DNA of 64,000 nucleotides. It comes from Coriobacteriia bacterium. Lineage in GTDB: Bacteria; Actinomycetota; Coriobacteriia; Coriobacteriales; UMGS124. The stretch spans positions 45,403-109,402 of the forward strand of contig CAWVLT010000044.1 in assembly GCA_963930185.1 (NCBI GenBank), read 5' to 3'. The position numbers and the translations under genes are program-made. Within the stretch, counting starts at the first letter, position 1. Every line of letters begins with the position of its first letter. The notes beneath the pieces were generated by a model. The model searched no databases, was not told the origin of the DNA, and saw nothing but the letters and a program-made list of their open reading frames with translations. Below, in pieces: positions 2,980 to 64,000 of the stretch.

Positions 2980-3885
2980 CTATTCGTTGGATCGTGTGTC
3001 TGGGGAGAATGTAGGTTGCATACACTCAAGAACGTAGTCTGCAAAGCGTCTAATTTCCTCGCCAGCTGCAGAATGAAGCACAAGATATGGATTCAGATCC
3101 ATTTGGAGTGGGATATTACAAACTGGGAGTACGCAAGAATGTTCGTCCACGTAACGGTGGAGAAGTGAGGGGATGGTCATGACGCATCCCTGGTCGTGCT
3201 TAATGAGAAGCTTTATGAGACCGCGGTCTTCGCCGACCATTTTGCGGCGGATGCCGAAACTATCTAGCAGTTTCTGGTACGGCGCAAGTCTCCCCTCTGT
3301 TTCAAGCAGCGTAATGCCATGCAAGTCATTGGAAAAATCAACTATTCCCTTTTGGGCGAGTGGATTATCGCGGTTAACAACGAGTTGCTGCTGGATTTTA
3401 CCGATCAGTATTTTTTCCAAGTAGTCTAATGAAGGGGGACAGGCTGTTATGGCAAGGTCAATTGTTCTTTGTTCAATTGCTTTCAAGAAATCTGGATAGT
3501 CTCTATTGACGACTTCCACGGGTAGGCCTTCTGGCTCTTGTCCATAACAATATATGTGGTCGAGGGTGTCTGGATCGATGGTGCCTCCCGTGATACCCAG
3601 TCGAATTGCAGTTCGACGAGTACGATATTTCGTTGCTTCGATGTCCTTGATGCAGGAGTCGTAAAGGGTGCCAAAGGCTTTGGAAAATCTATATAGGACT
3701 TCGCCTGCAGTTGTTGGGATGACCCCGGATTTGCTTCGAACCAAGAGCTCGGTGCCGAATTCCTTTTCGAGTTCGCGAATGCTTGTTGACAGACTTGGCC
3801 TCGATATAAACAGTTTGGCTGCGGCTTTGCTTATGTTCTGCTCTTCGCAGACGACCCTGAAATAGACCAGCTGGTTTAGATTCAC
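2980..3885 (-). CDS. LysR-family transcriptional regulator
   Basis: N-terminal HTH NLNQLVYFRVVCEEQNISKAAAKLFISRPSLSTSIRELEKEFGTELLVRS and LysR length. GTG 3885 preceded by GGAGGA is preferred over ATG 3903. Divergent from the SdhA-like gene. Confidence 0.85.
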   Translation of the reverse strand: MNLNQLVYFRVVCEEQNISKAAAKLFISRPSLSTSIRELEKEFGTELLVRSKSGVIPTTAGEVLYRFSKAFGTLYDSCIKDIEATKYRTRRTAIRLGITGGTIDPDTLDHIYCYGQEPEGLPVEVVNRDYPDFLKAIEQRTIDLAITACPPSLDYLEKILIGKIQQQLVVNRDNPLAQKGIVDFSNDLHGITLLETEGRLAPYQKLLDSFGIRRKMVGEDRGLIKLLIKHDQGCVMTIPSLLHRYVDEHSCVLPVCNIPLQMDLNPYLVLHSAAGEEIRRFADYVLECMQPTFSPDTRSNE

Positions 3886-3903
3886 GTGTCCTCCTCTGGG
3901 CAT

Positions 3904-3924
3904 CTGTTAGGAATCACCTAACAG
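3904..3924. promoter_or_regulatory. candidate LysR box (T-N11-A inside an 8-bp inverted repeat)
   Basis: CTGTTAGG-AATCA-CCTAACAG in the divergent LysR / SdhA-like intergenic region. A TATAAT hexamer follows at 3930-3935. Confidence 0.5.
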
Positions 3925-4031
3925 TATAGTATAATTTGGATACTTTTCTGAAAATGATCCAATGTTTAATATGATGAATGGAGAGTTGCAACTCCCGACC
4001 TTAACTGGCAACTGGATGGGGGAGGTTGGGA

Positions 4032-5831
4032 ATGAGTAAGTCACTGCCGCGTAGAGAGTTTTTGCAGGGAACGACGATGGGCCTTGTGGGCACATCTCTG
4101 CTGGGAGGCACTGCTCGTGCTGTAGCAGATGAGGCTGCGAGTGCGACTCCTGACCAGGTTGATGCTGCTCCGGACTACGAGATCTATAATACGGAGCTCT
4201 TGATTATCGGAACGGGCAGTGGGGCAACATGGGCCGCACAGCGCGCGCTCGAACGCGGCAAGCAGGTCCTCATGGTGGAAAAGGGCCCATTCCGTCATGC
4301 TGGCGCATCGGGTATGAGCTGGGATGCTTGGATGCTCTGGTGGGATTATGCGGGGATACGCAACGATGGCTGGATGCTGATTGATGAGCAAATTCCCCTT
4401 GCAGCATGGACGTACCTCGGGGGTAATGACTTCAACCCATGGGTTTCCTCGATAAATCATGGTCAAACGCTGCCGTGGCGAGATGAGAATGGCTTTCCCA
4501 AGCCAGAGTCCGATGCTCTTCCTTGGAGTGTCTGCTCGGCATTCTATCGCCGTGAGATGGACGCGCTGCTAGCCATGGGCCATGCCGAAGTCATGGACCA
4601 GACCATGATCACTGATCTGCTTATCAACGACGGACGCTGCCTGGGGGCCGTTGGCATATATCTGCCAACCGGCAAGATGCGTGTCATACGCGCCGACGCA
4701 ACAATAATGGCCGCGGGCGGCGGAACTCAATTTCATGGTTGGCTCACGATCGGGTACCGTGGCATCAATTCAACCGATAACACTGGCGATCTCGATATGG
4801 CGGCATTCCGTAAGGGATTTACCATAGGCGAGGCAGAATTTGCTCAATATGACTTTAATTCGATAGTCTACGAGGATATTGCACATACGTTTGGCTGTGG
4901 AATTGGAGCCGACGCTGGCGAGCTCGAGATTCTCTATGACGCGAACTACGAGCGCATCTTTGCCGATGACGAAGAGGTAAACGGTAACCTTGGCATGAGT
5001 CAGAGAATTGGACGTCTGGTGTTTGAGGAAGGCAAGGGAACGCCGCACGATGGCGTTTATGTCCACTACAACGAGGATTCGTTCAATAGCGTGCGCTATC
5101 CTATTATGCGCAACGTCGCGTTTTTCCAGGAACATGGGTATGACCCGATAGGTAAGTATACTGAAGTGGCTGCCGAAATGTACGAGCATGGTGGCTCGCC
5201 TGTTGTTGATGTTAACATGATGACGGAGTGCGAGGGATTATTCAACGAGCGTGGAGCGGGTGCCTGCGGAGAAAACGGAGGCCCACACTGCATGCACAAT
5301 CGCTTGTATGGGAGCTATACGGGTGAATGTGCTTCGAACTACCTAGACACGGCGGCTCCTGTCTCACTCGAGGATATTGACTGGGCAAGCGTGCTCGCAG
5401 AGTACAACCGCCTGCATGAAATTCGTACGCGTGTTGTTGAGAATGGACTGCGACCCCATGAAATCCGCCGCAAGATACAGGCGGCAGGGTATCGTGGCTT
5501 TACCATTTATCGTTCGACCGAAATGATGGAAGAAGCTATTGCTGAGCTCGAGCGCATTCGCAAGGAGGATATGCCGCGGCAGGTTCTTGCGGATAGTTCC
5601 ACAACGTTCAATGTCGAGTGGAAGACGGCAATCGAGAACTATAACCTTCTTGATTGCGCGGAGGTGAGCATCAAGGCCTCCCTATTGCGTGAGGAGACTC
5701 GCGGGGCTTATCTGAGGCCGGAATTCCCTGAGCGCGACGACGAAAACTGGAATTGCATGCTTGCCTGTCATCTCGAGGGTGACGAGATGGTCTTCGAAAA
5801 ACGCCCGTATCCGCCGTTGGTGACACAGTAG
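4032..5831 (+). CDS. Tat-signal SdhA/FrdA-like FAD flavoprotein subunit
   Basis: Leader MSKSLPRREFLQGTTMGLVGTSLLGGTARAVA; FAD fold LLIIGTGSGATWAAQRALERG; His in KGPFRHAGASGMSW aligning with the covalent-FAD His region. C-terminal EETRGAYLRPEFPERDDENW is typical of the SdhA/FrdA/NadB family. ATG 4032 has a GGGGGAGG RBS. Confidence 0.85.
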   Translation: MSKSLPRREFLQGTTMGLVGTSLLGGTARAVADEAASATPDQVDAAPDYEIYNTELLIIGTGSGATWAAQRALERGKQVLMVEKGPFRHAGASGMSWDAWMLWWDYAGIRNDGWMLIDEQIPLAAWTYLGGNDFNPWVSSINHGQTLPWRDENGFPKPESDALPWSVCSAFYRREMDALLAMGHAEVMDQTMITDLLINDGRCLGAVGIYLPTGKMRVIRADATIMAAGGGTQFHGWLTIGYRGINSTDNTGDLDMAAFRKGFTIGEAEFAQYDFNSIVYEDIAHTFGCGIGADAGELEILYDANYERIFADDEEVNGNLGMSQRIGRLVFEEGKGTPHDGVYVHYNEDSFNSVRYPIMRNVAFFQEHGYDPIGKYTEVAAEMYEHGGSPVVDVNMMTECEGLFNERGAGACGENGGPHCMHNRLYGSYTGECASNYLDTAAPVSLEDIDWASVLAEYNRLHEIRTRVVENGLRPHEIRRKIQAAGYRGFTIYRSTEMMEEAIAELERIRKEDMPRQVLADSSTTFNVEWKTAIENYNLLDCAEVSIKASLLREETRGAYLRPEFPERDDENWNCMLACHLEGDEMVFEKRPYPPLVTQ

Positions 5832-5881: not shown

Positions 5882-6592
5882 ATGCTTCTAACCGTATATA
5901 AGTTTGATCCCGCTGTTGATGTCGAGCCCTATTATGTGCAAGGCGAAGTTCCTTTCCAGGAACATATGACCGGTCTCCATGCGTTGATGTATTTTGATGA
6001 GAATGTCGAGCACGTAAACTATGATCATAGTTGTCGCGCTCGTGCGTGTGGTCGTTGCGCCATGATGCTCAACGGGGAGCCAACTCTCATGTGCACGCAC
6101 TTTCTTGAAGACAAGGACTATACCATCGAACCGTTGAGGGGTTTTCGAGTCATTCGAGACCTCATTGTTGACAAGAGCCCGCTTGATGCACAGCTTACGG
6201 GAGTTTACAATCGTGTTCGCGTCGAACCATTCGATGCTCAGACTATTGCCGTCGATATGTCGGATTATGACAACGACACCATGATGTTGCTCTATGGCTT
6301 GGAGTATTGCTGCCGCTGCGGAGTGTGCGATGCGGCCTGCCCGGTACTTGCGGAGATGCCCGAAGAATATGCTGGCCCTGCAACAATGCTCGCTTTGGCG
6401 TATCGTCACCTTGATCCTCTTGATTCGGGCGATCGGGTTATGGAGGCAGTAGGCAAGGGGCTCTATCATTGTATTCAGTGTGGAAAATGCGATGAAGTTT
6501 GCGCCAGTAGTGACATCAGGCATCTTGATGCTTGGAAGATCCTACGAGCTGCGGCGGAGGAACGCGGCTTGAGGCCGAGCTATGCGGAGTGA
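5882..6592 (+). CDS. SdhB/FrdB-like iron-sulfur subunit (no signal peptide)
   Basis: 2Fe-2S-type motif CRARACGRCAMMLNGEPTLMC plus two CxxCxxCxxxC motifs (CCRCGVCDAACP, CIQCGKCDEVCA). ATG 5882 has a GGAG RBS, 50 nt after the flavoprotein gene. Confidence 0.85.
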   Translation: MLLTVYKFDPAVDVEPYYVQGEVPFQEHMTGLHALMYFDENVEHVNYDHSCRARACGRCAMMLNGEPTLMCTHFLEDKDYTIEPLRGFRVIRDLIVDKSPLDAQLTGVYNRVRVEPFDAQTIAVDMSDYDNDTMMLLYGLEYCCRCGVCDAACPVLAEMPEEYAGPATMLALAYRHLDPLDSGDRVMEAVGKGLYHCIQCGKCDEVCASSDIRHLDAWKILRAAAEERGLRPSYAE

Positions 6593-7483: not shown

Positions 7484-8551
7484 ATGAAAACCATCGCATC
7501 TCGTCCCATCGCCGCTTTCGTCGCCTCGGTTGCGCTTGCCGGAACCTGTCTGGCCGCACCTGGCCTGGCCCTGGCCGACGAGCCTGCCGCGGCGCCGCTG
7601 CCGTCCGCCTCGGCTTCTGCCGACCAAACCGCAGGTGTCACTTGCACTTGCGCTGGTGTCCAGATCACCGTCCCCGAGGACTTCGACGTCGTCGAGCTCG
7701 GCAGCATGCTGCTTGCTAGTAACGCTGACGGGACCATCGTCGCGACCATAGTCCCCTCGGGCGCCGAGGATGCCGTGCCGGCCGCGCCGGAGGAGTGGGG
7801 TGCGTACTTCCTCCCCATTGTCGAGTCTACCGCCGAGGACATGGGTGGCGAGTATGCGGACGGCGGCGTGTACACGCTGGCCGACGGAACCAAGTCGTAT
7901 GTCTACTCGATTGCCTACGAACAGGACGGCATCCAGGCCATTCTTGTCCAGTGCTTCATCCCCATGGCCGATGGTTCGTTCGTCATGGTTCAGATTGCCT
8001 GCGATTCTAGCGATGCCGCCCTCGTGGAGCTTGCCGATGACATTTCTGAGACCATCGTCCTGGCGAGCGACGATACCGTCCCGTCAAGCGACGACACCTC
8101 GACGGCCGCCTCTGCTGCTGGTGACATCCAGGTGGTGCAGGCTGGCGGCATCGAGTTCGACCTGCCCGCGGGCTATGTTCCCGACGCCAGCTCGACCGAG
8201 GCGGAGCCTGCCTGGACGAGCGCTGATGGGACGGTCTACGTGAGCCTGATGCCCGGCCTGCTTGACGAGTATTCGACCGTGGGCGACGAGGCTTTGGATC
8301 TGCTCGCGACGATGGTTGTCAGCGGGCTCGGCGGCTCTGCCGAGAGCTCGACCGTGCTTTCTGGTGACGTCGACGTCCACGCGTACGTGTTCACCTTCTC
8401 GATGGAGGGCGAGGCGGTCGCCGGCATCCTGGGCATGGTGGTTCTCCCCGACGACACGGTGACGGGTGTGCTGGCCTTGACCCCCATGGAGAACGCTCCC
8501 GAAAATGACGCCGAGGTGACCGCTCTGTTCGAGAGCATCCGCCTGGCGTAG
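7484..8551 (+). CDS. secreted acidic protein of unknown function
   Basis: Sec-type leader MKTIASRPIAAFVASVALAGTCLAAPGLALA followed by DEP. The Asp/Glu/Ala-rich body appears to consist of two similar halves. RBS GAAGGGGA before ATG 7484. Confidence 0.6.
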   Translation: MKTIASRPIAAFVASVALAGTCLAAPGLALADEPAAAPLPSASASADQTAGVTCTCAGVQITVPEDFDVVELGSMLLASNADGTIVATIVPSGAEDAVPAAPEEWGAYFLPIVESTAEDMGGEYADGGVYTLADGTKSYVYSIAYEQDGIQAILVQCFIPMADGSFVMVQIACDSSDAALVELADDISETIVLASDDTVPSSDDTSTAASAAGDIQVVQAGGIEFDLPAGYVPDASSTEAEPAWTSADGTVYVSLMPGLLDEYSTVGDEALDLLATMVVSGLGGSAESSTVLSGDVDVHAYVFTFSMEGEAVAGILGMVVLPDDTVTGVLALTPMENAPENDAEVTALFESIRLA

Positions 8552-8858
8552 CCGATCAAGAGCCCAACTCGCTCGCGGGACGTCCTTGATGGGGGCGTCT
8601 AGGCCGGACACTGCGTTGGACTGACGTGCGATTGGCGACGAGAGCACGGCTGTAAGCTTACGGAGCACGGGGCCGTTCGGGATTATCCGGGCGGTCCCTT
8701 CTCATTGCAGGGTGAGCCTACGCATCCTGATCGGGTGGCACGCGGGACGTTGGGCCCTTTGGCCGGAAGACCCTGGTTGAGCGCCGCGCCTGGCGCTATT
8801 CTTATGCTGGTCTTATAAAAAGAATCGGATGGGGCCGAGGCAACACGGGGGCTGACGC

Positions 8859-9143
8859 ATGAAGGCAACGCGGGCGCTGCGCATGATGGTAAAGAACAGT
8901 GGGCTGACCGCCATCGAGATCTCTCGCAGGATCGGTCGCACGGACAACTACCTGTCTTCTCTGCTGAACAGGGGCAGCGTTCCCTCGGTGGAGACGTTTG
9001 CCAGCATAGCCGAGGCATGCGGCTGCAGGCTCTGCCTTGTCATGCCCGAGCAGACGGTTCAGTTGGACGGCTGGGAGGTCGAGCTTACGACCGATGTCAT
9101 GATTGACGGGGAGAAGCCGGGGCGCCAGATGGGCCGAGGGTAG
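8859..9143 (+). CDS. XRE/Cro-CI-type helix-turn-helix protein
   Basis: SGLTAIEISRRIGRTDNYLSSLLNRGSVPSVETFASIAEACGCRL matches the HTH_3 pattern. Confidence 0.65.
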   Translation: MKATRALRMMVKNSGLTAIEISRRIGRTDNYLSSLLNRGSVPSVETFASIAEACGCRLCLVMPEQTVQLDGWEVELTTDVMIDGEKPGRQMGRG

Positions 9144-9237
9144 CGGCCGACTGCTTCTCCAATGCGCCTACTATGGCGATGGGGCCACCGGCGAGGGGGC
9201 TTGATGACGCCTCTCATATATTGTTGATGTCAGACTC

Positions 9238-9266
9238 TTGACAGGCATTCTAAAGAGGAATATAAA
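9238..9266 (+). promoter_or_regulatory. sigma-70-like promoter upstream of the RNA ligase gene
   Basis: TTGACA (9238-9243), 17-nt spacer, TATAAA (9261-9266). Confidence 0.5.
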
Positions 9267-9384
9267 CTCATCAATACATGAGTCTTAGCAATATCCAACA
9301 AGCGGCATGGCTCTCAGGCTTGGGCTCTGTCTGCCTTGTTGGGCGAGGTGAAGTCTGCGTTGTTCTGGCTGGCGGGCACTCGAC

Positions 9385-10437
9385 ATGAAAGGATGGGCGG
9401 TCGTGGGGAGGAAACTGGCGTCGGTTCAATACGTGCACGATGTGTGGCCAATCGAGGGTGCGGACTCCATTGAAGCCATAGGCGTCCTAGGCTGGACGTG
9501 CGTTGCAAAGAAAGGCGAGTTTGCGGTGGGGGACAGCTGCGTCTATTTCGAGATAGACTCGTTTCTCCCAATTGACGATCATTTCGAGTTCCTCCGCGCA
9601 AGCAGCTATAAGAATAGCGAGCTGTTGGGCGAGGGTTTTCGCCTCAAGACCCAGAAGTTCCGCGGGCAGATCTCCCAAGGGCTGGCGCTGCCCTTGAGTA
9701 TTCTCCCAGAGGGGAATTATGTGCTTGGCCAGGACGTGACCGAGCTTTTGGGCGTTCGCAAGTGGGAGATAGCTGAGTTCGCGAGCAGCAACGGAACGAT
9801 CATCGGGGGCCTTCCGGTGGGCCTGCCAAAGACGGAGGAATCGCGTGTGCAGGCAGAGCCCGGTTTGATCGACGAGTTTGTCGGCGTGCCCTATTACATC
9901 ACAACCAAAATGGATGGCACAAGCGTCAGCATGTTTCTAATTGACGGACGCTTTGGGGTGTGCGGTCATAATTACGAGTACGCCGATGACGGCAGGTGCT
10001 CATTTTGGGATTATGCGCGAAAGCATGACATAGAGAGCAAGATGCGCGATCTTGGCATTGGCGATGTCGTTGTGCAGGGCGAGTTCTGTGCCGCCGGCAT
10101 TCAAAAGAACCCGCTGAAGCTTACCAGGCCCGAATGGTATATATTCACCGTCTATGACCCACTTACTCGCAAGCATTTCTCCCTGGACAGAATGACAAGA
10201 CTTTGCGACAGACTTTGCCTGCAGGTTGTTCCCGTTGAAGAGCGGGGTGACGACCTGCCCTACAAGGACATAACGGCGCTGCTCGAGAGGGCTCGTGGTA
10301 ACTACCCAAGCGGAACGACGAAGGAGGGGATCGTGATCAGGCCGCTTGTTCCTGTGTACTCAAAGACGCTGGGCGGGCCTTTGTCTATGAAAGTGATCAA
10401 TAACGACTATCTGCTCAAGAAGGCAAAGCGCGAATAG
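9385..10437 (+). CDS. ATP-dependent RNA ligase, Rnl5 / DraRnl (DRB0094) family
   Basis: N-terminal OB-like module RKLASVQYVHDVWPIEGADSIEAIGVLGWTCVAKKGEFAVGDSCVYFEIDSFLP. Nucleotidyltransferase motifs: I TKMDGTS, III VVVQGEF, IV KEGIVIRP, V LSMKVINNDYLLK. The start could instead be GTG 9403. Confidence 0.75.
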   Translation: MKGWAVVGRKLASVQYVHDVWPIEGADSIEAIGVLGWTCVAKKGEFAVGDSCVYFEIDSFLPIDDHFEFLRASSYKNSELLGEGFRLKTQKFRGQISQGLALPLSILPEGNYVLGQDVTELLGVRKWEIAEFASSNGTIIGGLPVGLPKTEESRVQAEPGLIDEFVGVPYYITTKMDGTSVSMFLIDGRFGVCGHNYEYADDGRCSFWDYARKHDIESKMRDLGIGDVVVQGEFCAAGIQKNPLKLTRPEWYIFTVYDPLTRKHFSLDRMTRLCDRLCLQVVPVEERGDDLPYKDITALLERARGNYPSGTTKEGIVIRPLVPVYSKTLGGPLSMKVINNDYLLKKAKRE

Positions 10438-10757
10438 GTACGTCCAGGTCGAGAAGGCTGCGCATAAGCTCGGCAAACTCGGCTCGAGTTTATGCGCAGC
10501 TCAATTGGCGTGCGGTTGTCGTACATTAGATGGCCGAGATGCGGCATCAAAGGGCCAGTGGCAGTTGGCCCAGGATTGCCGCGCCTATGTTGATGCGGGC
10601 TTTGACGCCCATCATACTTTGCTTGTGTGGCTGTCCCTGTGTCCTCGGTCCTCTGCTCATATACATAAGGTGCTGAGCTTTGTATTAGCAGCATAGAGCA
10701 AAATGCTAATACATAGCTTAGTAGTAATGTATGGCGGCAGGAAATACTGTGAGTGGC

Positions 10758-11027
10758 ATGAAGACTGACGTGCCACATGACTACTCGCGCTTTCTCAGCC
10801 AGCTGGGACTGAGGATCCAGCAGCTGCGCAAATCAAGAAAGATATCCCAAGAGCAGCTTGGCGAGCTCATAGGCGTGAGCCGCGTCTATGTCGGCTACAT
10901 CGAGCAGTCAAGGGAGATCCCGAACCTTGAGCTGCTCTATAACATCGCAGCGGTGCTTGGTGTCGGACTGGATGAGTTGTTCGTCGGCATCGAGATTGGT
11001 GCTCCAACGAGAAGCAGAAACGCATGA
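10758..11027 (+). CDS. XRE-family HTH regulator (tandem paralog 1)
   Basis: ISQEQLGELIGVSRVYVGYIEQSREIPNLELLYNIAAVLGV. Start 10758 chosen because it aligns with the paralog start at 11133. Confidence 0.75.
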   Translation: MKTDVPHDYSRFLSQLGLRIQQLRKSRKISQEQLGELIGVSRVYVGYIEQSREIPNLELLYNIAAVLGVGLDELFVGIEIGAPTRSRNA

Positions 11028-47833: not shown

Positions 47834-47857
47834 CGCGAGGTCGCGCAGGCCGGCGGC

Positions 47858-55841: not shown

Positions 55842-55968
55842 CGTTAGCTCCTTTCCTTGGTAAGGCCAGTGTCAATCGTGATGCATGTCCCAAGGCTATG
55901 GGGAACCGTCCGATTTGCGATAGCCCTACAGAGGGGAAGGAAGTCGATACGCATATCCCCAATATAGG

Positions 55969-57459
55969 TTAACCAACATCTGAGCTGGATTTATTCCCAG
56001 GGGTTTCACTATCAGATGGTTCGTATACATGCTCGACCAAGCTGATTAGCTCTTGTTGGGAATGTACGCCAAGCGCAACATAGAGTGATTTCTTGTATGT
56101 TCGTATGGTATTTTCTGCCAGAGACAGCTCCTTGGCGATGTAGGGAACATCCCTTCCCGTAGCGAGCAAGCAGAGGATCTCAGATTGTCGAGGCGAAAGT
56201 TTACGTCGTTCTGCCAATAAGAAGCAGCCCATTTGGATTGTGTCGGCCGATGCCATTTCGCGTTCCCGCTTTGTTTGGAGCTCCTGACGAATAATGATGA
56301 AAAGGGGTATGGTGAGGAGGTAAACAAGCAGGAGGGCCACAGAGATCGCCCTTACCCCCTCGGGGATTGAACTAAGGAAATCATTGCTGAGCAGCGGAAT
56401 AAATAACGGTCTTGTGAGATAGGCGATCCCCGCGAAAATGCCGTAGAGGATCTGGGGGTTAATCTGGTATTTTCTGCTTTGTTCAACAGTAAGGACAATC
56501 ATCATGATAGACATTACTGCTCCGCATGTTTCCCCCATGAGCACAAATACCCAGCTGCTTGCAGTTTCGTGAATAAACGAGGCGAATACGAATATCGTTG
56601 CGAGAACTGGCCATGAGAAAACGTATAGCCGGGGGATCGTGATATCTCGATCAAGGCCAAACCAAATGAATGCAACGATTGCGGTGCCTGCTATTCTGGC
56701 GACTTGCGACAAGACGATGCGAAACGATTCGGTGAGTATGTTCGCGTCCCAGTTTAGATCGATTGTCGAATCGACAAAGAAGAACACGATCACGCATAGA
56801 AAAGGCACTACAAGGCCTTTGCCTGCAGCCATGCAGCTAGAGTATGCAGACTCTCTTCCACCCGTGGTGCTTGGGCTCCTCTTCAGGTTAACGTGCGTCA
56901 AGACTATTACAAGCGGTACTAGGAGAAAGGCAATGAGAGGCAATAGACTGCGAGACGGCAGGAATGCGAGACAACAGATGGTCATACCGGCAAGAACGTT
57001 GGCGATAAGCAGGAGCTTTTTCATGTCATGTATTGACTGCTTTGCGATAACTTCCATCCAAAGGATGAACAGCATGCCTTCGCCGAGTCCTATGCATGCG
57101 ACCGCGAAGTAGTAGGCAATTTCGGCATGAATCCCATATTTGGAGACAAGAGACATGATGAGTCCAGCAATAAGTGACACAAAACAAAGAGACGCCTGAT
57201 TGGGTAGATTTCTCGTGCACACAAAGGATAGAAATCCCGCGCCAATCATCGTGATAGAGCAGGTAAATTGCTCGATCATCCTACAGGACGATCTCAGATC
57301 GTCTCCGAGTTCTAGGCAGTTTAATGCGAAGGGGCCCCATGTGAGCAAGGATCCTATTGCCATAAAGAGGGCGGCACCAATGACATATAGGATGTCATTG
57401 ACCAGCTTCTGTTTTGGATCAACACCGGCTTGATTGGCTTTTACGGTATTATCATTCAT
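55969..57459 (-). CDS. polytopic membrane LuxR-type regulator
   Basis: Hydrophobic body followed by RKLSPRQSEILCLLATGRDVPYIAKELSLAENTIRTYKKSLYVALGVHSQQEL. Confidence 0.85.
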   Translation of the reverse strand: MNDNTVKANQAGVDPKQKLVNDILYVIGAALFMAIGSLLTWGPFALNCLELGDDLRSSCRMIEQFTCSITMIGAGFLSFVCTRNLPNQASLCFVSLIAGLIMSLVSKYGIHAEIAYYFAVACIGLGEGMLFILWMEVIAKQSIHDMKKLLLIANVLAGMTICCLAFLPSRSLLPLIAFLLVPLVIVLTHVNLKRSPSTTGGRESAYSSCMAAGKGLVVPFLCVIVFFFVDSTIDLNWDANILTESFRIVLSQVARIAGTAIVAFIWFGLDRDITIPRLYVFSWPVLATIFVFASFIHETASSWVFVLMGETCGAVMSIMMIVLTVEQSRKYQINPQILYGIFAGIAYLTRPLFIPLLSNDFLSSIPEGVRAISVALLLVYLLTIPLFIIIRQELQTKREREMASADTIQMGCFLLAERRKLSPRQSEILCLLATGRDVPYIAKELSLAENTIRTYKKSLYVALGVHSQQELISLVEHVYEPSDSETPGNKSSSDVG

Positions 57460-57922
57460 AGGAGATCCCCGTCTAAATGCTTAGCCTGCCTAGAACTGTA
57501 GACTCTATTAATGATATATCGATTAGGTAGCTTGGGCTTCAAGAGATAGCGTGATATCCGCGGGTAGTTGGTTATTGGAAAGAAGAGGATAGTGGTTGAT
57601 GCGCTAGCACGCCATGCGGGCATCGATTGCGCGGACGAGCTTGTCATGGTCTGACGTGCTGACGCGCTTGCAGGGACGTAGGTCCATGTCTTTGTGAGGG
57701 CTCGCCTGACTGAACATGATGCATGTCAGTACGGCATGCGAGCGAGTTGCATTTTCTATCATTGTCCCTGCATTTAATTTCCTGTGCCGGGCAAAAGACT
57801 TTTGGTATTTACCACATCATAACGACATTATGGATACAGCCCTGATGGCATTTATAGTTACGAGTAAGGAAATGGGTTCCTACCGGGGATCCAAGGCATA
57901 CCGAATGGGGAGGGAGAGGGAT

Positions 57923-59782
57923 ATGGCGAATGCCACAAGTGTTCCGAGGCGTACGTTTATCCAGGGGGCAGGCATGACTGGAACCGCTGTTGCTCTTGGG
58001 ATGGCCATGGCCGGTGCGTCGGCTGGCCTTGCGGATGAACTCGGCGAACAGCCCGTTGGTCAGCCTGACGAGTATGATATCCAAGTACATGAGGCCGATG
58101 TCGTGATTGTGGGTGGCGGCATCGCCGGAACCACGGCAGCGCGCCGCATTATGGCACAGGGGCTAAGCGTCGCGATTGTTGACAAGGGACCGTGGGCCCA
58201 CTCGGGCACGTCAGGTATCAACTGGGGCCACAATGCTGAGAGCAACGAGTGGGCGGAGGGTGATGGCTCCAACACCTTTGGTGCTTGGATTTACATGCTT
58301 GAAGGCATGCTCAACCAGCCCAATGGCCTTGCTATGTGCCAGGCGGTTCATGCCGGTCGTCCGTGTGCAACTTTTGAGCAAATGGGCTGCATCCTCGAGC
58401 GTGGCAAGGACGGCCATACGGCGGCGGGCAATGCGCCGGCCGATCTTGTTGTGGATAATGGCACGTTCAACCGCTACTTCTGCTTGGATCTCGAGCGCAG
58501 GGGTGCCGATATCTATGATCGCACGATGGTTCTCGATCTGCTCCAGGATGCTGAGGGGCGTGCAGCTGGTGTGGTTGCGGTGAGCCTGGTCGATGGTAGC
58601 GCACATGTGTTCAGGGGTAAGGCGATTGTCTTCGCTACGGGCAGCTACTGCTGGGTTACCGGATACAACGGCATGAAGCCGCATACCATCGCCGGCCCCG
58701 AGAACACTGGTGATGGCCTTGCCATTCTCATGCGCAAGGGACTTGCGATGCGTGACATGGAAGAGCTGCCCATCGACTTTGTGCAGTGGAACCCTCTCGG
58801 CATCCGTCAGGGTATGGGTGCGCAGGGTGCTTCGACAATCAACTGGAAGTTCATGTACGACAAAGATCTCAATCCGCTGGTGCCCGAGGGTGTCGAGAGT
58901 GTGTCGAACGGACAGCTTGCCCGCTACTACTACCGTGCTCAGCTCGAAGGCCGAGGAACAGAGAACGGTGGCGTGTACGTAGCTACCCATGACCCGGACT
59001 CCGATGACCGCTACTACCGTCGTTGCAAGGAGAACGAGCGGATTTACTTGGGTTACGAGCTACCCGATTATACTGAGGTCGTTGCTGAGCAGTGGGAGGT
59101 CGCCGGCCATCCGTTTGACTACTCGCCTACGGCGGAGACTGCCATCCCCAGCCTGTTCTACGCTGCGTCTGGCCAGGGTGTTTGGGCGGGCTGCGGATTT
59201 TTCGGTGCGTTTGGCTCTGGGTTTATGGCGGGCGAGGGGGCTGCTGCCCGTGCTCTCGAGACTGAGGATGCCCCCGCAATCGACTGGGCTGCCGCGAATG
59301 CTGCCCTTGCTGAGGCGTATGCCCTGCTCGAGTCTGAGCCGGACGATCCACTTCGTTCCACCGTGGTGTTCCGCGACATCCAGAATGCTTACTGGTCCGG
59401 GCTAAGCCCTCTGCGCAACGCCGATGGCATCAAGGGGTCGATTGCCGAGCTTGACCGCATCGAAAAAGAAGAGCTTCCCAGGATGTACGTCCCCCAGAAG
59501 TCGCGCCAGTATAACACCGACTGGCATCGTGCGCTCGAGGCTCGCAACATGCTTATGTGTGCCCGCGCCACCGGTGAGGCTGCCCTGCTGCGCGAGGAGT
59601 GCCGAGGTGCACACGTGCGTGAGGACTTCCCCATTGAGGATAACGAGAACTTCCTCAAGAGCACCAAAGTTTCGTATTCCAACGGGGAGTGGAGCGCAAG
59701 TCTCGAAGAGCTGGACGGCACGATCATGTCTGTCGAGGACATGAAGCCGATCATGCCCAAGCTCGATCTGTTTGAGCAGTAA
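57923..59782 (+). CDS. Tat-signal SdhA/FrdA-like FAD flavoprotein subunit (second copy)
   Basis: Leader MANATSVPRRTFIQGAGMTGTAVALGMAMAGASAGLA; DVVIVGGGIAGTTAARR; DKGPWAHSGTSGINW; C-terminal EECRGAHVREDFPIEDNENF. ATG 57923 has a GGGGAGGGAGAGGG RBS. Confidence 0.85.
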   Translation: MANATSVPRRTFIQGAGMTGTAVALGMAMAGASAGLADELGEQPVGQPDEYDIQVHEADVVIVGGGIAGTTAARRIMAQGLSVAIVDKGPWAHSGTSGINWGHNAESNEWAEGDGSNTFGAWIYMLEGMLNQPNGLAMCQAVHAGRPCATFEQMGCILERGKDGHTAAGNAPADLVVDNGTFNRYFCLDLERRGADIYDRTMVLDLLQDAEGRAAGVVAVSLVDGSAHVFRGKAIVFATGSYCWVTGYNGMKPHTIAGPENTGDGLAILMRKGLAMRDMEELPIDFVQWNPLGIRQGMGAQGASTINWKFMYDKDLNPLVPEGVESVSNGQLARYYYRAQLEGRGTENGGVYVATHDPDSDDRYYRRCKENERIYLGYELPDYTEVVAEQWEVAGHPFDYSPTAETAIPSLFYAASGQGVWAGCGFFGAFGSGFMAGEGAAARALETEDAPAIDWAAANAALAEAYALLESEPDDPLRSTVVFRDIQNAYWSGLSPLRNADGIKGSIAELDRIEKEELPRMYVPQKSRQYNTDWHRALEARNMLMCARATGEAALLREECRGAHVREDFPIEDNENFLKSTKVSYSNGEWSASLEELDGTIMSVEDMKPIMPKLDLFEQ

Positions 59783-59830
59783 GGGCGCGGTAGAAGGTTT
59801 GACCGATCGAGCAGGAAGCGAGGGATTTCA

Positions 59831-60565
59831 ATGGCGACTATCACCGCCAAAATATTTAGGTATGATCCAAGCGTGGACGAGGAACCGCACTACTCCACAC
59901 ATGAGGTCGAGTGGATTGACGATGGCACGGGCATCATGACCGCGTTGCAGGTTCTTCACGCCATCAACTATGACGAAGAAGCTTTTGGCTATGATCACAA
60001 CTGCTCGTCGGGTTTGTGCGGGCGCTGCAGCATGCTGATCGACGGCAAGCCTGGTCTTGCCTGCTGGACTCCGCTTGAGCCTGGCGAGCACACGTTCGAG
60101 CCGTTGCCGGGCTTCCCGGTCATTAAAGACCTCGTAGTTGATCGCAGCAAGGCACGCCAGCAGTTCGTGAACGTTGATACGACCATCCACACCGTCGATC
60201 CCATTGTTACGCTGCCCGATATTGACTACGAGCTGTATTGGGAGACGCTTGAGCGCCTGAACATGTGTCGCGAGTGCATGCAGTGCTATGCTGTGTGCCC
60301 CGTGCTCAAGGATGGAAATAACACGCGATTCGTTGGCCCGGGTGCCATGGGGCAGATTGCCCAGCGCTACTTCGACACCGAGGATCAGAGCGATCGACTC
60401 GGACAGGCTGTCTTTTCCGGCTTGTGGGATTGCACGCTATGCGGCGAGTGCACGGCCGTATGCCCGTCCGGCATCAAGCATGTCGAACTATTCCAGAAGA
60501 TGCAAGAAGATGCGCGCGAGCGCGGGCTTGTGCCTTCCGAAGACGTGGAGAAAGATTTCGCATAG
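59831..60565 (+). CDS. SdhB/FrdB-like iron-sulfur subunit (second copy)
   Basis: CSSGLCGRCSMLIDGKPGLAC, CRECMQCYAVCP, CTLCGECTAVCP. Colinear with 5882-6592. Confidence 0.85.
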   Translation: MATITAKIFRYDPSVDEEPHYSTHEVEWIDDGTGIMTALQVLHAINYDEEAFGYDHNCSSGLCGRCSMLIDGKPGLACWTPLEPGEHTFEPLPGFPVIKDLVVDRSKARQQFVNVDTTIHTVDPIVTLPDIDYELYWETLERLNMCRECMQCYAVCPVLKDGNNTRFVGPGAMGQIAQRYFDTEDQSDRLGQAVFSGLWDCTLCGECTAVCPSGIKHVELFQKMQEDARERGLVPSEDVEKDFA

Positions 60566-60765
60566 TATCTGTCGCGAATTCAGACCTATTTCGCGATGTT
60601 GCTAAATGGTCGGGGCTTATAAATGCGGGAGAGGCGTGCTTGCGTCTCTTCCGCATATGTTTAACACGGGTGACAGGGTGTCTCGCCGTTCTTCATATTG
60701 CGATTGACGTGATCGTGCTTACAGCAATAGCATGTACCCCAAAGGGATTTGGGGAGGGGATTGTC

Positions 60766-61686
60766 GTGCGTGTCGAGGTGTTGCGTGAGTTCATAGAATT
60801 TGCCAAGTATCAAAATATCAGCGCGGCTGCAAAGAAGCTCTTTATTACACAACCGGCATTGAGCAACCACATTGCAAGTATCGAAAAAGAACTGGGACTA
60901 GAGCTCGTCCGTCATGGAAAGACGATGGAGCTCACGGCTGCTGGACGGGCGTTTTTCGAGGGCTGCTGCGAGGTCGTGGGGGCATACGACTCTATGATTG
61001 AAAGGGTTCGCGTGCTTGCAGACCAAGGTAATCCCGGAACGCTCGTTATTAAAGCAGACACGAGCGGAACAAGCGGCTCTTGTCGGCTCTTGGATCTAAT
61101 AAGCCAGTTCAAACGGCTGCATCCTTCGATAACGGTGACCTTTAACAACTCTAGTAAGAACAGTGTCGCGGCTGACCTTGCGTCAGGTGAACTCGATTGT
61201 GCTCAGGTCTACAACTACATTGATGGGCGTGCTGGAGCAGAGCTAATAGGGGGAGAGTGTGACCAGCTTGATTCGATCGTTATCGACCAGGCCCCCATTA
61301 CCGTTGTGGCAAATAAGGATCATCCCTTGATGTCAAAGAAGAGCATTTCTTTTGGAGACATCCTCCGCTTTCCATATGCCATGCCGGCGGGGGCCGCTTT
61401 CATAGAGTGCGAGGCTTCTATTAGGCAACTGTATCACAAGCATGGGACGGAGTTAAAAAATATCCACTACAAGGTCGTTGATTCGATAGCCGACCTCGTT
61501 GCAATGGAAACGCATGGGGATGAGCTGCTCATAATGGGGGCGTCACCTGCTCTTCCGAGTGCGATGGCATGTCGTTCGTTTGATCCCCAGGAGTATCAGG
61601 ACTTCTGCCTGATTTACCGTAAGGACAGTGACAACACCGTGCTGAAGGAGTTCATCGAGTTTGTTCGGTCGGACGGGCGCCCCTGA
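60766..61686 (+). CDS. LysR-family transcriptional regulator
   Basis: GTG 60766 after GGGGAGGGGA. HTH VLREFIEFAKYQNISAAAKKLFITQPALSNHIASIEKELGLELVRH. The ORF-track start 60424 overlaps the Fe-S gene. Confidence 0.85.
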   Translation: MRVEVLREFIEFAKYQNISAAAKKLFITQPALSNHIASIEKELGLELVRHGKTMELTAAGRAFFEGCCEVVGAYDSMIERVRVLADQGNPGTLVIKADTSGTSGSCRLLDLISQFKRLHPSITVTFNNSSKNSVAADLASGELDCAQVYNYIDGRAGAELIGGECDQLDSIVIDQAPITVVANKDHPLMSKKSISFGDILRFPYAMPAGAAFIECEASIRQLYHKHGTELKNIHYKVVDSIADLVAMETHGDELLIMGASPALPSAMACRSFDPQEYQDFCLIYRKDSDNTVLKEFIEFVRSDGRP

Positions 61687-61804
61687 GCGGCCGAAGGGCT
61701 GGTGAGCTTCAGCACTTGTGGCTACAAAATTCCAACAGGCTCTATTTGTGTCTATGTAGGGTATGGCGAGGTACTGCAAGCGTGCGTGGGCCTTCTCTGA
61801 TGCG

Positions 61805-63355
61805 TCAGCGGTGGCGGTTGGGTCTTTTCGGATTCAGCGGAGCATCTGTTCTTGGAGAACTTCCGTCCTTCTTCTCGATAAGCTGGATCAGCTCGCTTTT
61901 GCTATGAATGCCAAGCTTAGTGTAGATGCTCTTTGTGTGTGAGCGGACAGTGTTCAATGAAACTGTGAGTCTTTCGCCGATCTGCGGCAGAGTATATCCT
62001 CGACAGAGCAGCTTAACTACTTCGGTTTCGCGTCCAGACAATCCGAATGAGGCCGCCAACCAAGCAAAGTCGTCCGTATCGTGCTTTTCGGATTGAGTCA
62101 CGAATTCGTCTTTGTGAGCTGTACTTTTCTGCGGTCTTTGTAATACAAGAAAGAACGTATAGCCGATTAGAAGTATTGCCATGCAGAACGAGAGTGCTGC
62201 AGCAAACGTTCTGCTGGCACCGTGGCTCATGACAGGGAATAGTAGGTGGAGTATACCTGACGGTATATTTGTCTGCATGAAGAGGACGGCTCCAATTCCA
62301 AATGTCATTGTTTTCGGTAGGGATTCGCGATAGGCGAGTCCGGAAACAAAAGTCCAGGCGAATATCATGAGGCAGTCCTGTGTGGCGTTCATAAAGCTGA
62401 CGGAAGTGGGCAGATCGATGAAGCAGAATGACGAGTAGCCCAGCAGGCCGCAGAAAATCAGGCACGAATAGAGGCCCCAAAGCTGGTCGGGGTTATCGTG
62501 ACTAAGGGGAATCGCCCATAAAAAGTTAACCACGAACACGAGAAGAAACACGGGCAATCTCAGCGCGTTGGACGTGAAGAGCCGAGAGGCCTCCTGTGAA
62601 GGGGCAACGACCACTTCTGTTGCTGCGCACGCGATGCTGCATAACAGAAGTAAACAAAGAACACCCCATGGAGGACTTGTTAGGTGTTTGGCCGTTATGC
62701 GTTTCCAGTTGCCATCGTAGATCGTGCACTCTGTTGGAAGTAGCAGTAGTCCGCCGCAAATTATCGGCGAAGCTACGGCTATGCCTCCCATTACAACAGG
62801 AGACGCTCCTTCAAGAACGGTGATTAGTATCCCGTATAGCGCAAATGCTCCTGTTATGGAAAGGGAGGATAGGCTTGGGCTGATGGATGAGGTCCGTGTT
62901 CCCCATCCAAGCAACAGCATTGCTGCCCCAAATCCATGAACTACCCGTCCTAATACGAAGAGCGGGTCAGCGGGGTCATCAATGCCCATGATGCTGATGC
63001 AACCGGCAAGCATGGAAACCATGGCAACGATAACGGCGTACCGCATGATTTTGGACGACAGGGGTTTTAGGGCGACGAGGATAATCACGAGGATTATGGT
63101 GGCAAGCTGGGCTAGACGTGAGCATGTGAATGCATCTGCGGCGCTACTTGCAAATGAGTTACCAAAGATGCTCCAGGCGCTTAGCCTGAACGCGAGAATA
63201 CCGAGAGAGGTTATGCAGCAGAGAAGCAGGCGATTGCTTTTCTGCGAACTGATGCCTGTGCTTGCGGGTAAATGCCTGTGCACAATTCCCACTCCCCCAT
63301 GACTGGCAAGCGCCTGCAGACAGAACTGTTCGGATTTTAGCACCACATCATCCAT
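61805..63355 (-). CDS. polytopic membrane LuxR-type regulator
   Basis: Hydrophobic body followed by FGLSGRETEVVKLLCRGYTLPQIGERLTVSLNTVRSHTKSIYTKLGIHSKSEL. The start codon is not well supported by an RBS. Confidence 0.8.
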   Translation of the reverse strand: MDDVVLKSEQFCLQALASHGGVGIVHRHLPASTGISSQKSNRLLLCCITSLGILAFRLSAWSIFGNSFASSAADAFTCSRLAQLATIILVIILVALKPLSSKIMRYAVIVAMVSMLAGCISIMGIDDPADPLFVLGRVVHGFGAAMLLLGWGTRTSSISPSLSSLSITGAFALYGILITVLEGASPVVMGGIAVASPIICGGLLLLPTECTIYDGNWKRITAKHLTSPPWGVLCLLLLCSIACAATEVVVAPSQEASRLFTSNALRLPVFLLVFVVNFLWAIPLSHDNPDQLWGLYSCLIFCGLLGYSSFCFIDLPTSVSFMNATQDCLMIFAWTFVSGLAYRESLPKTMTFGIGAVLFMQTNIPSGILHLLFPVMSHGASRTFAAALSFCMAILLIGYTFFLVLQRPQKSTAHKDEFVTQSEKHDTDDFAWLAASFGLSGRETEVVKLLCRGYTLPQIGERLTVSLNTVRSHTKSIYTKLGIHSKSELIQLIEKKDGSSPRTDAPLNPKRPNRHR

Positions 63356-63501
63356 GTGGTTTTGTTTCTGGTCGGCGTTGGCATGCAGAGCACATCATCA
63401 ATGTGATGCAGGGCGAAATGGGTGATCTTAGTGTTAATCCCATAAGCGAGCAAAGCCAGAAGAGGGCTTTGAACTCGAGGCTATGGGAAGGGAGATGCGA
63501 T

Positions 63502-64000
63502 ATGTCAGCAACCAATGGGAACGTAACGCGCCGAGCTTTTGTTGTGGGGAGCGCCTGTGCTGCAGCAGCCAGCACGATCGTTTCAGCCGCCGGCGGGATT
63601 GTCAATGCAGAGGAAGCGCCGTCTGAGCCTCAGGGGGCATCGGGGGATCAGGGGCTAATTCCTTCTGCGACGCTAAACCCACAGGACTATGATTATCGTC
63701 AGAACTCCGGAGACCTTTCCGCTGTTTTTTCTGAATGGAAGCTGGGCCCCCTGACGCTTTCGCATCGCATCGTTAAGTCTGCGGCGGGGTCAGACACCTG
63801 GAACAACGGCCTGGGCGAAGAGATGATCGAGTATTACATGAACTTCGCAAGAGGCGGCGTCGAGATGATTTGGGTGGAGAACTTTGCCAACCTTTTAACT
63901 AAGTATCCCGTTCCTTCAAAGACCGATCTGGACGAGTACGATACCAAGCAGCTCGTCGATCCGATTCATGAGGCGGGGGCGTATATTGGTTATCAGTTTG
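63502..64000 (+). CDS. Tat-signal OYE / enoate-reductase-type flavoprotein (5' part, runs off the window)
   Basis: Not in the ORF track because it is open-ended. ATG 63502 follows GGGAAGGGAG. Hand translation gives MSATNGNVTRRAFVVGSACAAAASTIVSAAGGIVNAEE...LTLSHRIVKSAAGSDTW...NFARGGVEMIWVE, colinear with the N-terminus of 13659-15896. Confidence 0.8.
   Translation, partial: MSATNGNVTRRAFVVGSACAAAASTIVSAAGGIVNAEEAPSEPQGASGDQGLIPSATLNPQDYDYRQNSGDLSAVFSEWKLGPLTLSHRIVKSAAGSDTWNNGLGEEMIEYYMNFARGGVEMIWVENFANLLTKYPVPSKTDLDEYDTKQLVDPIHEAGAYIGYQF

Follow-up and report, generated by a model that had tools for sequence, protein, structure and literature searches.

Gene content and arrangement of the array

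We analyzed a window of 64,000 nucleotides from contig CAWVLT010000044.1 of a Coriobacteriia bacterium (assembly GCA_963930185.1), in which regulator genes and genes for flavoenzymes with export-type leaders lie side by side in an extended array. Pfam searches with all long open reading frames (ORFs), combined with a six-frame reading of the N-termini, resolved eleven modules in the window, each consisting of a regulator gene and one or more flavoenzyme genes (Table 1). The regulators are eight polytopic proteins with a LuxR/GerE helix-turn-helix (HTH) domain, here referred to as transmembrane LuxRs (TM-LuxRs), and three LysR proteins. The twelve flavoenzyme genes code for seven FAD_binding_2 proteins (FB2_a to FB2_g, one of which is a pseudogene), two SdhA-like proteins, two proteins of the old yellow enzyme (OYE) type with an FAD domain and one protein of the nitronate monooxygenase (NMO)/FabK type. 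An initial annotation of the same DNA had arrived at identical counts of membrane LuxRs (eight) and flavoenzymes (twelve, split 7+2+2+1). The modules that it described are real, but they number eleven rather than about ten, and its assignment of the enzymes to four folds was generous, as the SdhA-like genes have the same FAD_binding_2 fold.

Regulator and flavoenzyme genes are neighbors far more often than expected from a random gene order: 11 of the 12 flavoenzyme units adjoin a LuxR or LysR gene, as compared to a mean of 5.4 in 200,000 shuffles of the gene order within the window (P=0.0004). All eight TM-LuxR genes adjoin a flavoenzyme gene, which in one case is the pseudogene. The NMO gene had been thought to be the only flavoenzyme gene without a regulator next to it; a regulator neighbor exists for 11 of the 12 units, and the NMO gene is one of these, with a convergent LysR gene. 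A regulator neighbor for FB2_a, in turn, was not borne out, since this gene is flanked by OYE_a and an XRE gene. The orientation within the modules is as variable as originally described, with co-directional, divergent and convergent (50427/52282) layouts all present.

The array extends past both ends of the window, as seen in two contigs from the same species. On the upstream side (contig L016, 2177-5892), a LuxR gene and a gene for a 707-residue FAD_binding_2/FMN_bind protein precede the phosphoglucomutase gene. On the downstream side (contig L014, 1609-9854), the remainder of OYE_b is accompanied by a gene for a 546-residue FAD_binding_2/FMN_bind protein, another FAD_binding_2 gene and a LuxR gene.

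Table 1. Regulator and flavoenzyme genes of the eleven modules, with positions in the window and strand in brackets.
Module	Gene	Position (strand)	Arrangement	Domains and other features	Leader
M1	LysR-1	2980-3903 (-)	divergent from SdhA1 and FeS1	HTH_1 + LysR_substrate; GC3 0.49; 301-aa product called in other assemblies	
M1	SdhA1	4032-5831 (+)	followed by FeS1	FAD_binding_2 + Succ_DH_flav_C	MSKSLPRREFLQG...AVA-DE
M1	FeS1	5882-6592 (+)	after SdhA1	Fer2_3 + Fer4_8; three Cys clusters; 236-aa product called	no signal peptide
M2	TM-LuxR	16070-17452 (-)	upstream of and co-directional with OYE_a	GerE; polytopic; 460-aa product called	
M2	OYE_a	13659-15896 (-)	between TM-LuxR and FB2_a, co-directional	Oxidored_FMN + Pyr_redox_2	Tat-type
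M2	FB2_a	11786-13519 (-)	downstream of OYE_a	best NCBIfam match VprA, 208 bits (cut-off 600)	SRRGF...AFA-EE
M3	TM-LuxR	17731-19179 (-)	divergent from FB2_b	GerE; 10 hydrophobic segments; GC3 0.46; probably now an orphan	
M3	FB2_b	19410-20936 (+)	divergent from TM-LuxR	pseudogene; in-frame TAG at 19560	DRHSF (RH)
M4	TM-LuxR	22962-24398 (-)	upstream of FB2_c	GerE (E=9e-17); 10 hydrophobic segments	
M4	FB2_c	21138-22838 (-)	downstream of TM-LuxR	TAT_signal 20.4 bits	TRRNFLKG...AGA-DE
M5	FB2_d	27441-29264 (-)	divergent from TM-LuxR	GC3 0.94, backbone-like; 39% identical to FB2_e	SRRNFV...ALA-EE
M5	TM-LuxR	29388-31166 (+)	divergent from FB2_d	GerE; 10 hydrophobic segments; start codon uncertain (ORF listed from 29256)	
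M6	LysR-2	36182-37141 (+)	convergent with NMO	HTH_1	
M6	NMO	37257-38306 (-)	convergent with LysR-2	FabK-like; PF03060 (E=8e-42)	MQQTLTRGAFLKS...AWA-DE
M7	FB2_e	41244-43007 (-)	upstream of TM-LuxR	39% identical to FB2_d	DRRGFVKS...AIA-EE
M7	TM-LuxR	39599-41230 (-)	13 bp downstream of FB2_e	GerE; 13 hydrophobic segments; start codon uncertain	
M8	FB2_f	50427-52088 (+)	convergent with TM-LuxR	best NCBIfam match KstD-like, 137 bits (cut-off 789)	SRRSFIKN...ALA-DE
M8	TM-LuxR	52282-53871 (-)	convergent with FB2_f	GerE; 12 hydrophobic segments; 529-aa product called; 12 helices in structure model	
M9	TM-LuxR	55969-57459 (-)	upstream of FB2_g	GerE; 12 transmembrane helices in structure model, 6+6 layout	
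M9	FB2_g	54243-55841 (-)	downstream of TM-LuxR	Fcc3 His504/Arg545 positions not conserved	TRRSMI...AQA-AEE
M10	SdhA2	57923-59782 (+)	followed by FeS2	FAD_binding_2 + Succ_DH_flav_C; TAT_signal 21.5 bits	VPRRTFIQG...GLA-DE
M10	FeS2	59831-60565 (+)	between SdhA2 and LysR-3, co-directional	SdhB-like; Fer2_3 + Fer4_8; 37% identical to FeS1	
M10	LysR-3	60766-61686 (+)	downstream of FeS2	HTH_1 + LysR_substrate	
M11	TM-LuxR	61805-63355 (-)	divergent from OYE_b	GerE; 12 hydrophobic segments	
M11	OYE_b	63502-64000 (+)	divergent from TM-LuxR	5' part, cut by the window end; continuation in contig L014	MSATNGNVTRRAFVVG...VNA-EE (six-frame reading)

Leaders of the flavoenzymes

Eleven of the flavoenzyme leaders conform to an S/T-R-R-x-F consensus, followed by a weakly hydrophobic, Ala/Gly-rich h-region. 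Every leader has an AxA motif with acidic residues at the end, and a purine-rich Shine-Dalgarno sequence was identified upstream of every leader-encoding start codon. We applied a rule resembling TATFIND, in which an RR pair within the first 35 residues precedes a stretch of 13 or more uncharged residues. The rule was passed by 11 of the 12 readable flavoenzyme leaders, among them those of all six intact FB2 enzymes and both SdhA-like enzymes, as compared to a single protein among 32 others (Fisher p=2e-8). Twin-arginine leaders had been ascribed to all of the enzymes, which holds for the 11 intact enzymes apart from the NMO type, the leader of which has RG; the leader of the pseudogene has RH. 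The Pfam TAT_signal model did not exceed its cut-off of 22.7 bits for any of the leaders (20-22 bits for three of them and weak scores for the rest), and the assignment to the pathway of twin-arginine translocation (Tat) is therefore based on the motif rule and cofactor considerations. From these features we infer that the flavoenzymes are exported by Tat.

Uncleaved membrane anchors or Sec signals, with the enzymes either tethered to the membrane or exported unfolded, would be compatible with the sub-threshold TAT_signal scores and with the loss of the second Arg in the NMO copy and its 86% identical relative, in both of which the leader itself has been kept. Such a role is nevertheless highly improbable, since enzymes that carry FAD, FMN or Fe-S clusters need to be folded and loaded with cofactor before export, and since the consensus, the Ala/Gly-rich h-region and the AxA sites recur in 11 leaders. 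The RR pair is moreover retained in 114 of 119 homologs of OYE_a, often together with a lipobox, and in 53 of the 64 members of the SdhA2 family. The Fe-S partners of the SdhA-like proteins themselves lack a signal, in line with Tat hitch-hiking by a leaderless Fe-S subunit as exemplified by MfrAB.

The sole non-flavoenzyme in the window that passed the RR rule is a serpin (43354-44952) with a full Tat-type leader (MTRRGFAGAALGG...AALADE). Its gene is followed by a gene for a transglutaminase-like protein (45024-46385).

Membrane-bound and soluble regulators

The C-terminal GerE domain (PF00196) scored above the Pfam gathering threshold in all eight TM-LuxRs and is preceded by 10-13 hydrophobic segments in Kyte-Doolittle profiles. 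AlphaFold2 (AF2) models of two of these proteins, named LuxR55969 and LuxR52282 after their positions, contain 12 helices in a 6+6 layout, which supports the earlier description of eight ORFs that combine a long polytopic region with a C-terminal LuxR/GerE HTH. Model quality was higher for LuxR55969 (pLDDT 72, pTM 0.61) than for LuxR52282 (pLDDT 63, pTM 0.52). The loops in the LuxR55969 model hold 11 Lys and Arg residues on the side of the HTH domain and none on the opposite side.

A Foldseek search with the LuxR55969 model retrieved exclusively transporters of the major facilitator superfamily (MFS) among the top 50 matches in the PDB, with E-values from 2e-4 and TM-scores of only 0.23-0.33. 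The poorer model of LuxR52282 matched mainly MFS transporters (E-values from 0.01), the other matches being an unrelated complex and a small number of HTH domains of the LuxR type. At the sequence level, Pfam searches with E-values up to 10 yielded nothing meaningful on MFS homology of the sensor domains. As a hypothesis suggested by these low-scoring structural matches, the sensor domain of the TM-LuxRs may have an MFS-derived fold.

The TM-LuxRs in the window could be aligned with one another only in the HTH domain. No 8-mer was common to more than three of the 12 regions covering 180 bp upstream of each enzyme gene, and a common operator was dropped from consideration.

The TM-LuxR of module M3 is probably now an orphan, located beside the pseudogene FB2_b. 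The in-frame TAG codon of this pseudogene falls just ahead of the FAD GxGxxG motif, which confirms the previous assignment of one dead FAD_binding_2 gene, and a truncated product of 452 residues has been called likewise in three other independent assemblies. An intact homolog of FB2_b (39% identity) adjoins a LuxR gene in contig L013.

FAD_binding_2 enzymes

All seven FB2 genes matched PF00890 (FAD_binding_2) with E-values from 1e-26 to 1e-45, and the two SdhA-like genes also passed the gathering score of this family. The FB2 enzymes are Cys-rich, as is Cgr2, the reductase from Eggerthella lenta. None of the enzymes in the window reached the cut-off of any curated NCBIfam equivalog, and no substrate could therefore be assigned. 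The equivalogs considered and rejected as guides to the substrate were VprA, KstD, BilR, BaiCD, FabK and MFR, the scores for all of which were far below their cut-offs. The classical fumarate-site residues are absent from FB2_g and from the SdhA2 family, which makes even an enoate reductase activity conjectural for these enzymes.

Divergent from FB2_f, a gene at 48978-50063 codes for a protein of 361 residues with 4-5 transmembrane segments and a C-terminal soluble domain, with no family match. A secreted acidic protein of 355 residues, also with no family match, is encoded at 7484-8551, after the first SdhA-FeS cassette. Both proteins may be accessories to a module.

SdhAB-like cassettes

Each of the two SdhA-like genes is followed by a gene for an Fe-S protein. 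With a flavoprotein that contains a Succ_DH_flav_C domain and an Fe-S subunit with three Cys groups (Fer2_3/Fer4_8) for three clusters, the cassettes resemble quinol:fumarate reductase, succinate:quinone reductase and methylmenaquinol:fumarate reductase (MFR). The similarity scores are low, as the SdhA-like proteins obtained 62-158 bits in comparison to the NCBIfam cut-offs of 567-1100 bits for succinate dehydrogenase, fumarate reductase and MFR. SdhA2 belongs to a small family that was observed solely in Coriobacteriia-like sources. A His near the position of covalent FAD attachment in SdhA is conserved in this family and the C-terminal RGAHxR motif is kept, whereas the positions of the HPTG His (T/Y/H/N) and of the proton-shuttle Arg (L/M/I/Q) vary across the 64 members.

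The closest parallel is MfrABE of Campylobacter and Wolinella, in which an SdhA-like flavoprotein with a Tat leader is likewise combined with a leaderless SdhB-like Fe-S subunit, and the lack of a leader on the SdhB-like subunits implies co-export with the SdhA-like partners. The cassettes differ from MfrABE in that there is no gene for MfrE/SdhE or another anchor, in that the MFR equivalog scores are only 62-94 bits against a cut-off of 1100, in the lack of conservation at the HPTG His and proton-shuttle Arg positions, and in that they are paired with LysR genes and belong to a family observed solely in Coriobacteriia-like sources. Anchor and SdhE-type genes were absent after both cassettes in the window and in the related loci L008-L010.

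In these three loci, the SdhA-FeS cassette was identified in three other contexts: with a downstream LysR gene in the same order as in module M10 (L009), with divergent LysR genes as in module M1, and with a pair of genes for a GAF-domain kinase and a GerE response regulator in Raoultibacter. The pairing with LysR contrasts with E. lenta, in which LysR was found in only one LuxR cluster (Dong 2022, PMC9734109).

OYE-type and NMO-type enzymes

The solved structures closest to OYE_a are those of 2-naphthoyl-CoA reductase (NCR, 6qkg) and FadH (1ps9), and the nearest solved relatives also include histamine and trimethylamine dehydrogenases. OYE_a shares the OYE TIM barrel, the four Cys residues for a [4Fe-4S] cluster and the C-terminal FAD domain with FadH, NCR, BaiCD and BilR, but differs from these proteins by the Tat leader, which includes a lipobox in many homologs from other phyla, and by a GSNAQAFD motif in place of the second dinucleotide motif. 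Scores to BilR and BaiCD were only 190-260 bits, as compared to cut-offs of 750-825 bits. Members of the OYE_a family with 56-62% sequence identity are present in Firmicutes, Chloroflexi, Acidobacteriota and Actinomycetota. The [4Fe-4S] Cys motif and the FAD GGGPAG motif were invariant in 61 members, and the replacement of the second (NAD(P)H) motif by GSNAQAFD is also invariant. As judged from the sequences, loss of the NAD(P)H motif would be in keeping with an enzyme that does not come into contact with NAD(P)H.

In three genomes from other phyla, the OYE homologs are stand-alone genes with no electron-transfer partner beside them, and a conserved partner of this kind was dropped as a candidate. 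A homolog in Dehalobacter is directly followed by two tatA/E genes. Literature searches, only some of which were aimed at this family, retrieved no characterized member of the Tat-OYE family.

The NMO protein scored 123 bits to the FabK equivalog (cut-off 453 bits). The clade of leader-bearing NMO/FabK-like proteins is small, with 19 representatives at E<1e-30, of which the closer ones (E below about 1e-50) have leaders. In a library of 1.8 billion proteins, the nearest relatives have RR in the leader, while the 86% identical relative has RS and the copy in the window RG (TRGAFLK). RR is also retained in more distant members of the clade. The RG and RS leaders may reflect either tolerated export with a single Arg or decay of export.

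Co-inheritance and origin of the modules

Exact matches to proteins in the window were found in only 7-11 public contigs, all of which are syntenic metagenome assemblies. The named relatives of single proteins belong to Raoultibacter, Adlercreutzia and Gordonibacter (all Eggerthellaceae), and on the basis of these named relatives the source appears to be Eggerthellaceae-like. Paralogs in the window share no more than 23-39% identity, and alignment of the LuxRs is confined to the HTH, so that the array does not stem from recent duplication in tandem.

The association of LuxR55969 with FB2_g is conserved. The two genes also lie side by side and in the same direction in three further contexts (L004, L011/L012 and L013), and the FB2_g orthologs (55-67% identity) are always preceded by an orthologous LuxR. 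A single genome scan with FB2_g identified a 67% identical ortholog in a metagenome-assembled genome, directly preceded by a full-length LuxR55969 ortholog of 40% identity, and LuxR55969 homologs at 42% and 35% identity are followed by FB2_g orthologs at 66% and 55% in neighborhoods that are otherwise different. The identities of the two proteins fall together, with the regulator diverging faster. Next to an ortholog of OYE_a with 76% identity (L015), there is by contrast a TM-LuxR that is not orthologous to LuxR16070, the partner of OYE_a in the window. Swapping of partners therefore also occurs, and not every pair is stably co-inherited. The expectation that reductase and regulator are inherited together was thus supported for LuxR55969/FB2_g and for the SdhA-FeS(-LysR) cassette, but not for OYE_a. 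Modules are thus both transferred and maintained as units.

In GC content at third codon positions (GC3), about half of the modules differ from the backbone (0.8-0.94). The backbone genes and modules M5, M6 and M8 together have GC3 values of 0.73-0.94, whereas values of 0.43-0.70 were obtained for the segments 2980-24400 (M1-M4) and 54243-64000 (M9-M11). A gene for an IS200/Y1 transposase (2078-2821) is located exactly where GC3 falls from about 0.87 to 0.43-0.70. Within each module, regulator and enzyme genes have similar GC3, and this shared atypical composition suggests that the low-GC3 modules were probably acquired horizontally as whole regulator and enzyme units.

The same islands could be taken to mean that the genes are clustered as a side effect of horizontal transfer to a hot spot of recombination, in which case adjacency would be mostly fortuitous and the regulators need not control their neighbors. 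The IS200 element at the border of the first island, the interspersed genes of mobile-element type (RNA ligase with XRE genes, PIN toxin-antitoxin, Schlafen), the pseudogene FB2_b beside an intact orphan LuxR and the non-orthologous LuxR beside the OYE ortholog in L015 are all in line with this scenario. We consider it very unlikely, as adjacency is far above that in shuffled gene orders, the composition is common to regulator and enzyme within each module, LuxR55969 and FB2_g have remained neighbors in three unrelated contexts, and local control has been demonstrated genetically in E. lenta.

Electron donor

Cgr2, which is secreted by Tat, has been proposed to take electrons from the membrane cytochrome Cgr1, of which a near-identical paralog is encoded in the core genome (Koppel 2018, PMC5953540). 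Unlike the Cgr1-Cgr2 operon, none of the modules in the window contains a gene for a NapC/NrfH-like multiheme cytochrome. CxxCH motifs were found in all frames of the window only in the OYE Fe-S motif and in antisense ORFs, and TatA-like motifs were not found. Likewise, a survey of the window that included gap ORFs of at least 45 residues, Pfam and motif scans detected no match to PF14537, no anchor and no tat gene, in agreement with the absence of cytochrome, membrane anchor and tat genes noted in the initial annotation; hidden genes for an anchor or a cytochrome were rejected on the same grounds. Neither an FMN_bind domain (PF04205) nor a heme domain for electron input is present in any enzyme in the window, and the lack of FMN_bind sets them apart from the flavinylated extracellular reductases UrdA and FrdA (Light 2019). 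The FMN_bind domain for electron entry is present only in the flanking PF00890 copies outside both ends.

The analysis covered about 84 kb of the genome, and a shared electron donor encoded elsewhere would be plausible. This part of the interpretation is consistent with the core-genome Cgr1 paralog (Koppel 2018), with small PF14537 genes near related modules and with the paralogs bearing FMN_bind on either side of the window, and a literature search revealed nothing newer on the electron route.

In related contigs, small Cgr1-like cytochrome genes (PF14537) were observed near modules at L010 11381-11740 and L013 9094-9552. L010, which is part of a related actinobacterial metagenome-assembled genome, contains two LysR/SdhA/FeS cassettes, each followed by a gene for a lipoprotein of 133-135 residues (3520-3927 and 8199-8600). 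These lipoproteins have a CALSGCH (CX4CH) motif and 72% mutual identity, with no homolog in the window. Together with the small PF14537 proteins, the L010 lipoproteins are candidate electron carriers.

Comparison to Eggerthellaceae and proposed function of the array

We compared the modules to systems that have been characterized in the Eggerthellaceae. A family of LuxR proteins with 10-12 transmembrane segments has been defined, with 83 such regulators in E. lenta, of which 50 are located near flavin enzymes; deletion and complementation have shown that the 12-TM LuxRs DadR, HcdR and CadR each switch on the neighboring enzyme gene upon exposure to the substrate of that enzyme (Dong 2022, PMC9734109). 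The Eggerthellaceae encode tens to hundreds of signal-peptide-bearing reductases of the PF00890 and PF00384 families, and 64 reductase genes in E. lenta directly neighbor such regulators; the reductases are induced by their acceptors, which together with formate support ATP synthesis (Little et al., bioRxiv 10.1101/2022.12.26.521950).

The TM-LuxRs in the window share with DadR, HcdR, CadR and Cac3/CgrR a GerE HTH that follows about 12 transmembrane helices, transmembrane domains that are nearly unalignable between paralogs and a location next to genes, co-directional or divergent, the products of which are redox enzymes with signal peptides. They differ in that they are not close to any characterized member and are also found beside OYE-type genes and, in one case, beside a dead gene. 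The possible MFS-like fold of the sensor domain is not mentioned in Dong 2022. The FB2 enzymes resemble UrdA, IrdA, CrdA-D and CirA-D (E. lenta, Sutterella, Holdemania) as well as Cgr2 in having a PF00890 domain, a Tat-type leader, less than 40% identity between paralogs, active sites that are specific to each clade and a transmembrane regulator encoded alongside. Given the match with Dong 2022, Little 2023 and Koppel 2018, the interpretation offered in the initial annotation is essentially the published model. The concept is already known, and the modules in the window are new members, some with variant architectures.

Taken together, we regard it as likely that the array consists of substrate-inducible exported flavoenzyme modules according to the established Eggerthellaceae model. 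It would represent a locally dense part of the "reductase arsenal" of the lineage, with eleven independent and probably substrate-inducible modules. In eight of these, a one-component membrane regulator with an N-in/C-in, 12-helix and possibly MFS-like domain would detect a small molecule located at or within the membrane, after which the C-terminal cytoplasmic GerE HTH would activate the adjacent enzyme gene; a soluble LysR would take the regulator role in the other three. Regulator function and substrate induction are here transferred by analogy from the E. lenta literature. The enzyme would fold in the cytoplasm around FAD, around FMN, a [4Fe-4S] cluster and FAD, or around FAD together with a partner that holds three Fe-S clusters. 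The folded enzyme would then be exported by Tat, with the leaderless Fe-S subunits carried along by their partners. On the outer side of the membrane, it may reduce a specific organic acceptor with electrons from a membrane-bound donor encoded elsewhere, a step in which the direction of catalysis, the coupling to respiration, the identity of the donor and every substrate are presumed.

Several observations weigh against this interpretation. No FMN_bind or heme domain for electron input is present in the enzymes of the window, the leaders score below the TAT_signal cut-off and that of the NMO protein has a single Arg. Three of the eleven modules use a soluble LysR instead of a membrane sensor, and the notion of a ligand-sensing membrane regulator paired with its cognate exported reductase, although supported by the genetics in E. 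lenta and by one conserved pair, does not cover these three. Additionally, the OYE_a ortholog adjoins a different LuxR, no curated equivalog cut-off was reached and residues of the fumarate site are missing.

The absence of the latter from FB2_g and the SdhA2 family would also fit if the flavoenzymes were not respiratory terminal reductases, but served in detoxification or scavenging or acted as dehydrogenases that run oxidatively and feed electrons into the membrane. The proximity of FB2_f to 3-ketosteroid dehydrogenase (KstD) models, the histamine and trimethylamine dehydrogenases among the nearest solved relatives of OYE_a and the stand-alone OYE homologs in other phyla, which have no respiratory partner, point in the same direction. 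Such roles are nonetheless unlikely, since electron acceptors induce, and are reduced by, the characterized E. lenta enzymes from this lineage-specific expansion, which also support ATP synthesis with formate, since Cgr2 is a reductase (Koppel 2018, PMC5953540), and since export takes the enzymes away from NAD(P)+ and from acceptors of the electron-transfer flavoprotein type.

Within the model of inducible exported reductases, we tentatively put forward a broader proposal, about which we are somewhat more doubtful than confident. The arsenal may reach beyond PF00890 and molybdopterin enzymes to include three further classes in the same module logic, namely Tat-exported OYE/[4Fe-4S]/FAD enzymes, anchorless and LysR-controlled SdhAB-like enzymes exported by Tat, and leader-bearing NMO/FabK-like enzymes, and the 12-TM sensor may be a repurposed MFS "transceptor" fold. 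These three classes fall outside the PF00890/PF00384 basis of the survey by Little et al. Through modules of this kind, gut Eggerthellaceae make use of molecules from the diet, the host and drugs as electron acceptors, and each pair of regulator and enzyme is in principle a biosensor for a metabolite and a lead to a biotransformation. The window adds eleven uncharacterized pairs from an uncultured relative.

Other genes in the window

Unrelated genes account for about 40% of the 61 kb. Interspersed among the modules are genes for a phosphoglucomutase, an IS200 element, an RNA ligase with XRE genes, a Schlafen/AlbA_2 protein, a hydrolase and a methionine ABC transporter, along with genes for Hsp33, a PIN toxin-antitoxin pair, the serpin and transglutaminase-like proteins, and HAD and GrpB proteins. 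The Schlafen gene (24638-26152), which codes for AlbA_2 and HATPase_c_4 domains, is located between modules, and the gene for the PIN-domain toxin overlaps with an antitoxin-like ORF (38577-39423). The RNA ligase (9385-10437) has a PHA02142 OB-fold domain, and its gene lies amid three small genes for XRE-type HTH proteins (8859-11369) in a low-GC3 island. This segment may be the remnant of a mobile element.

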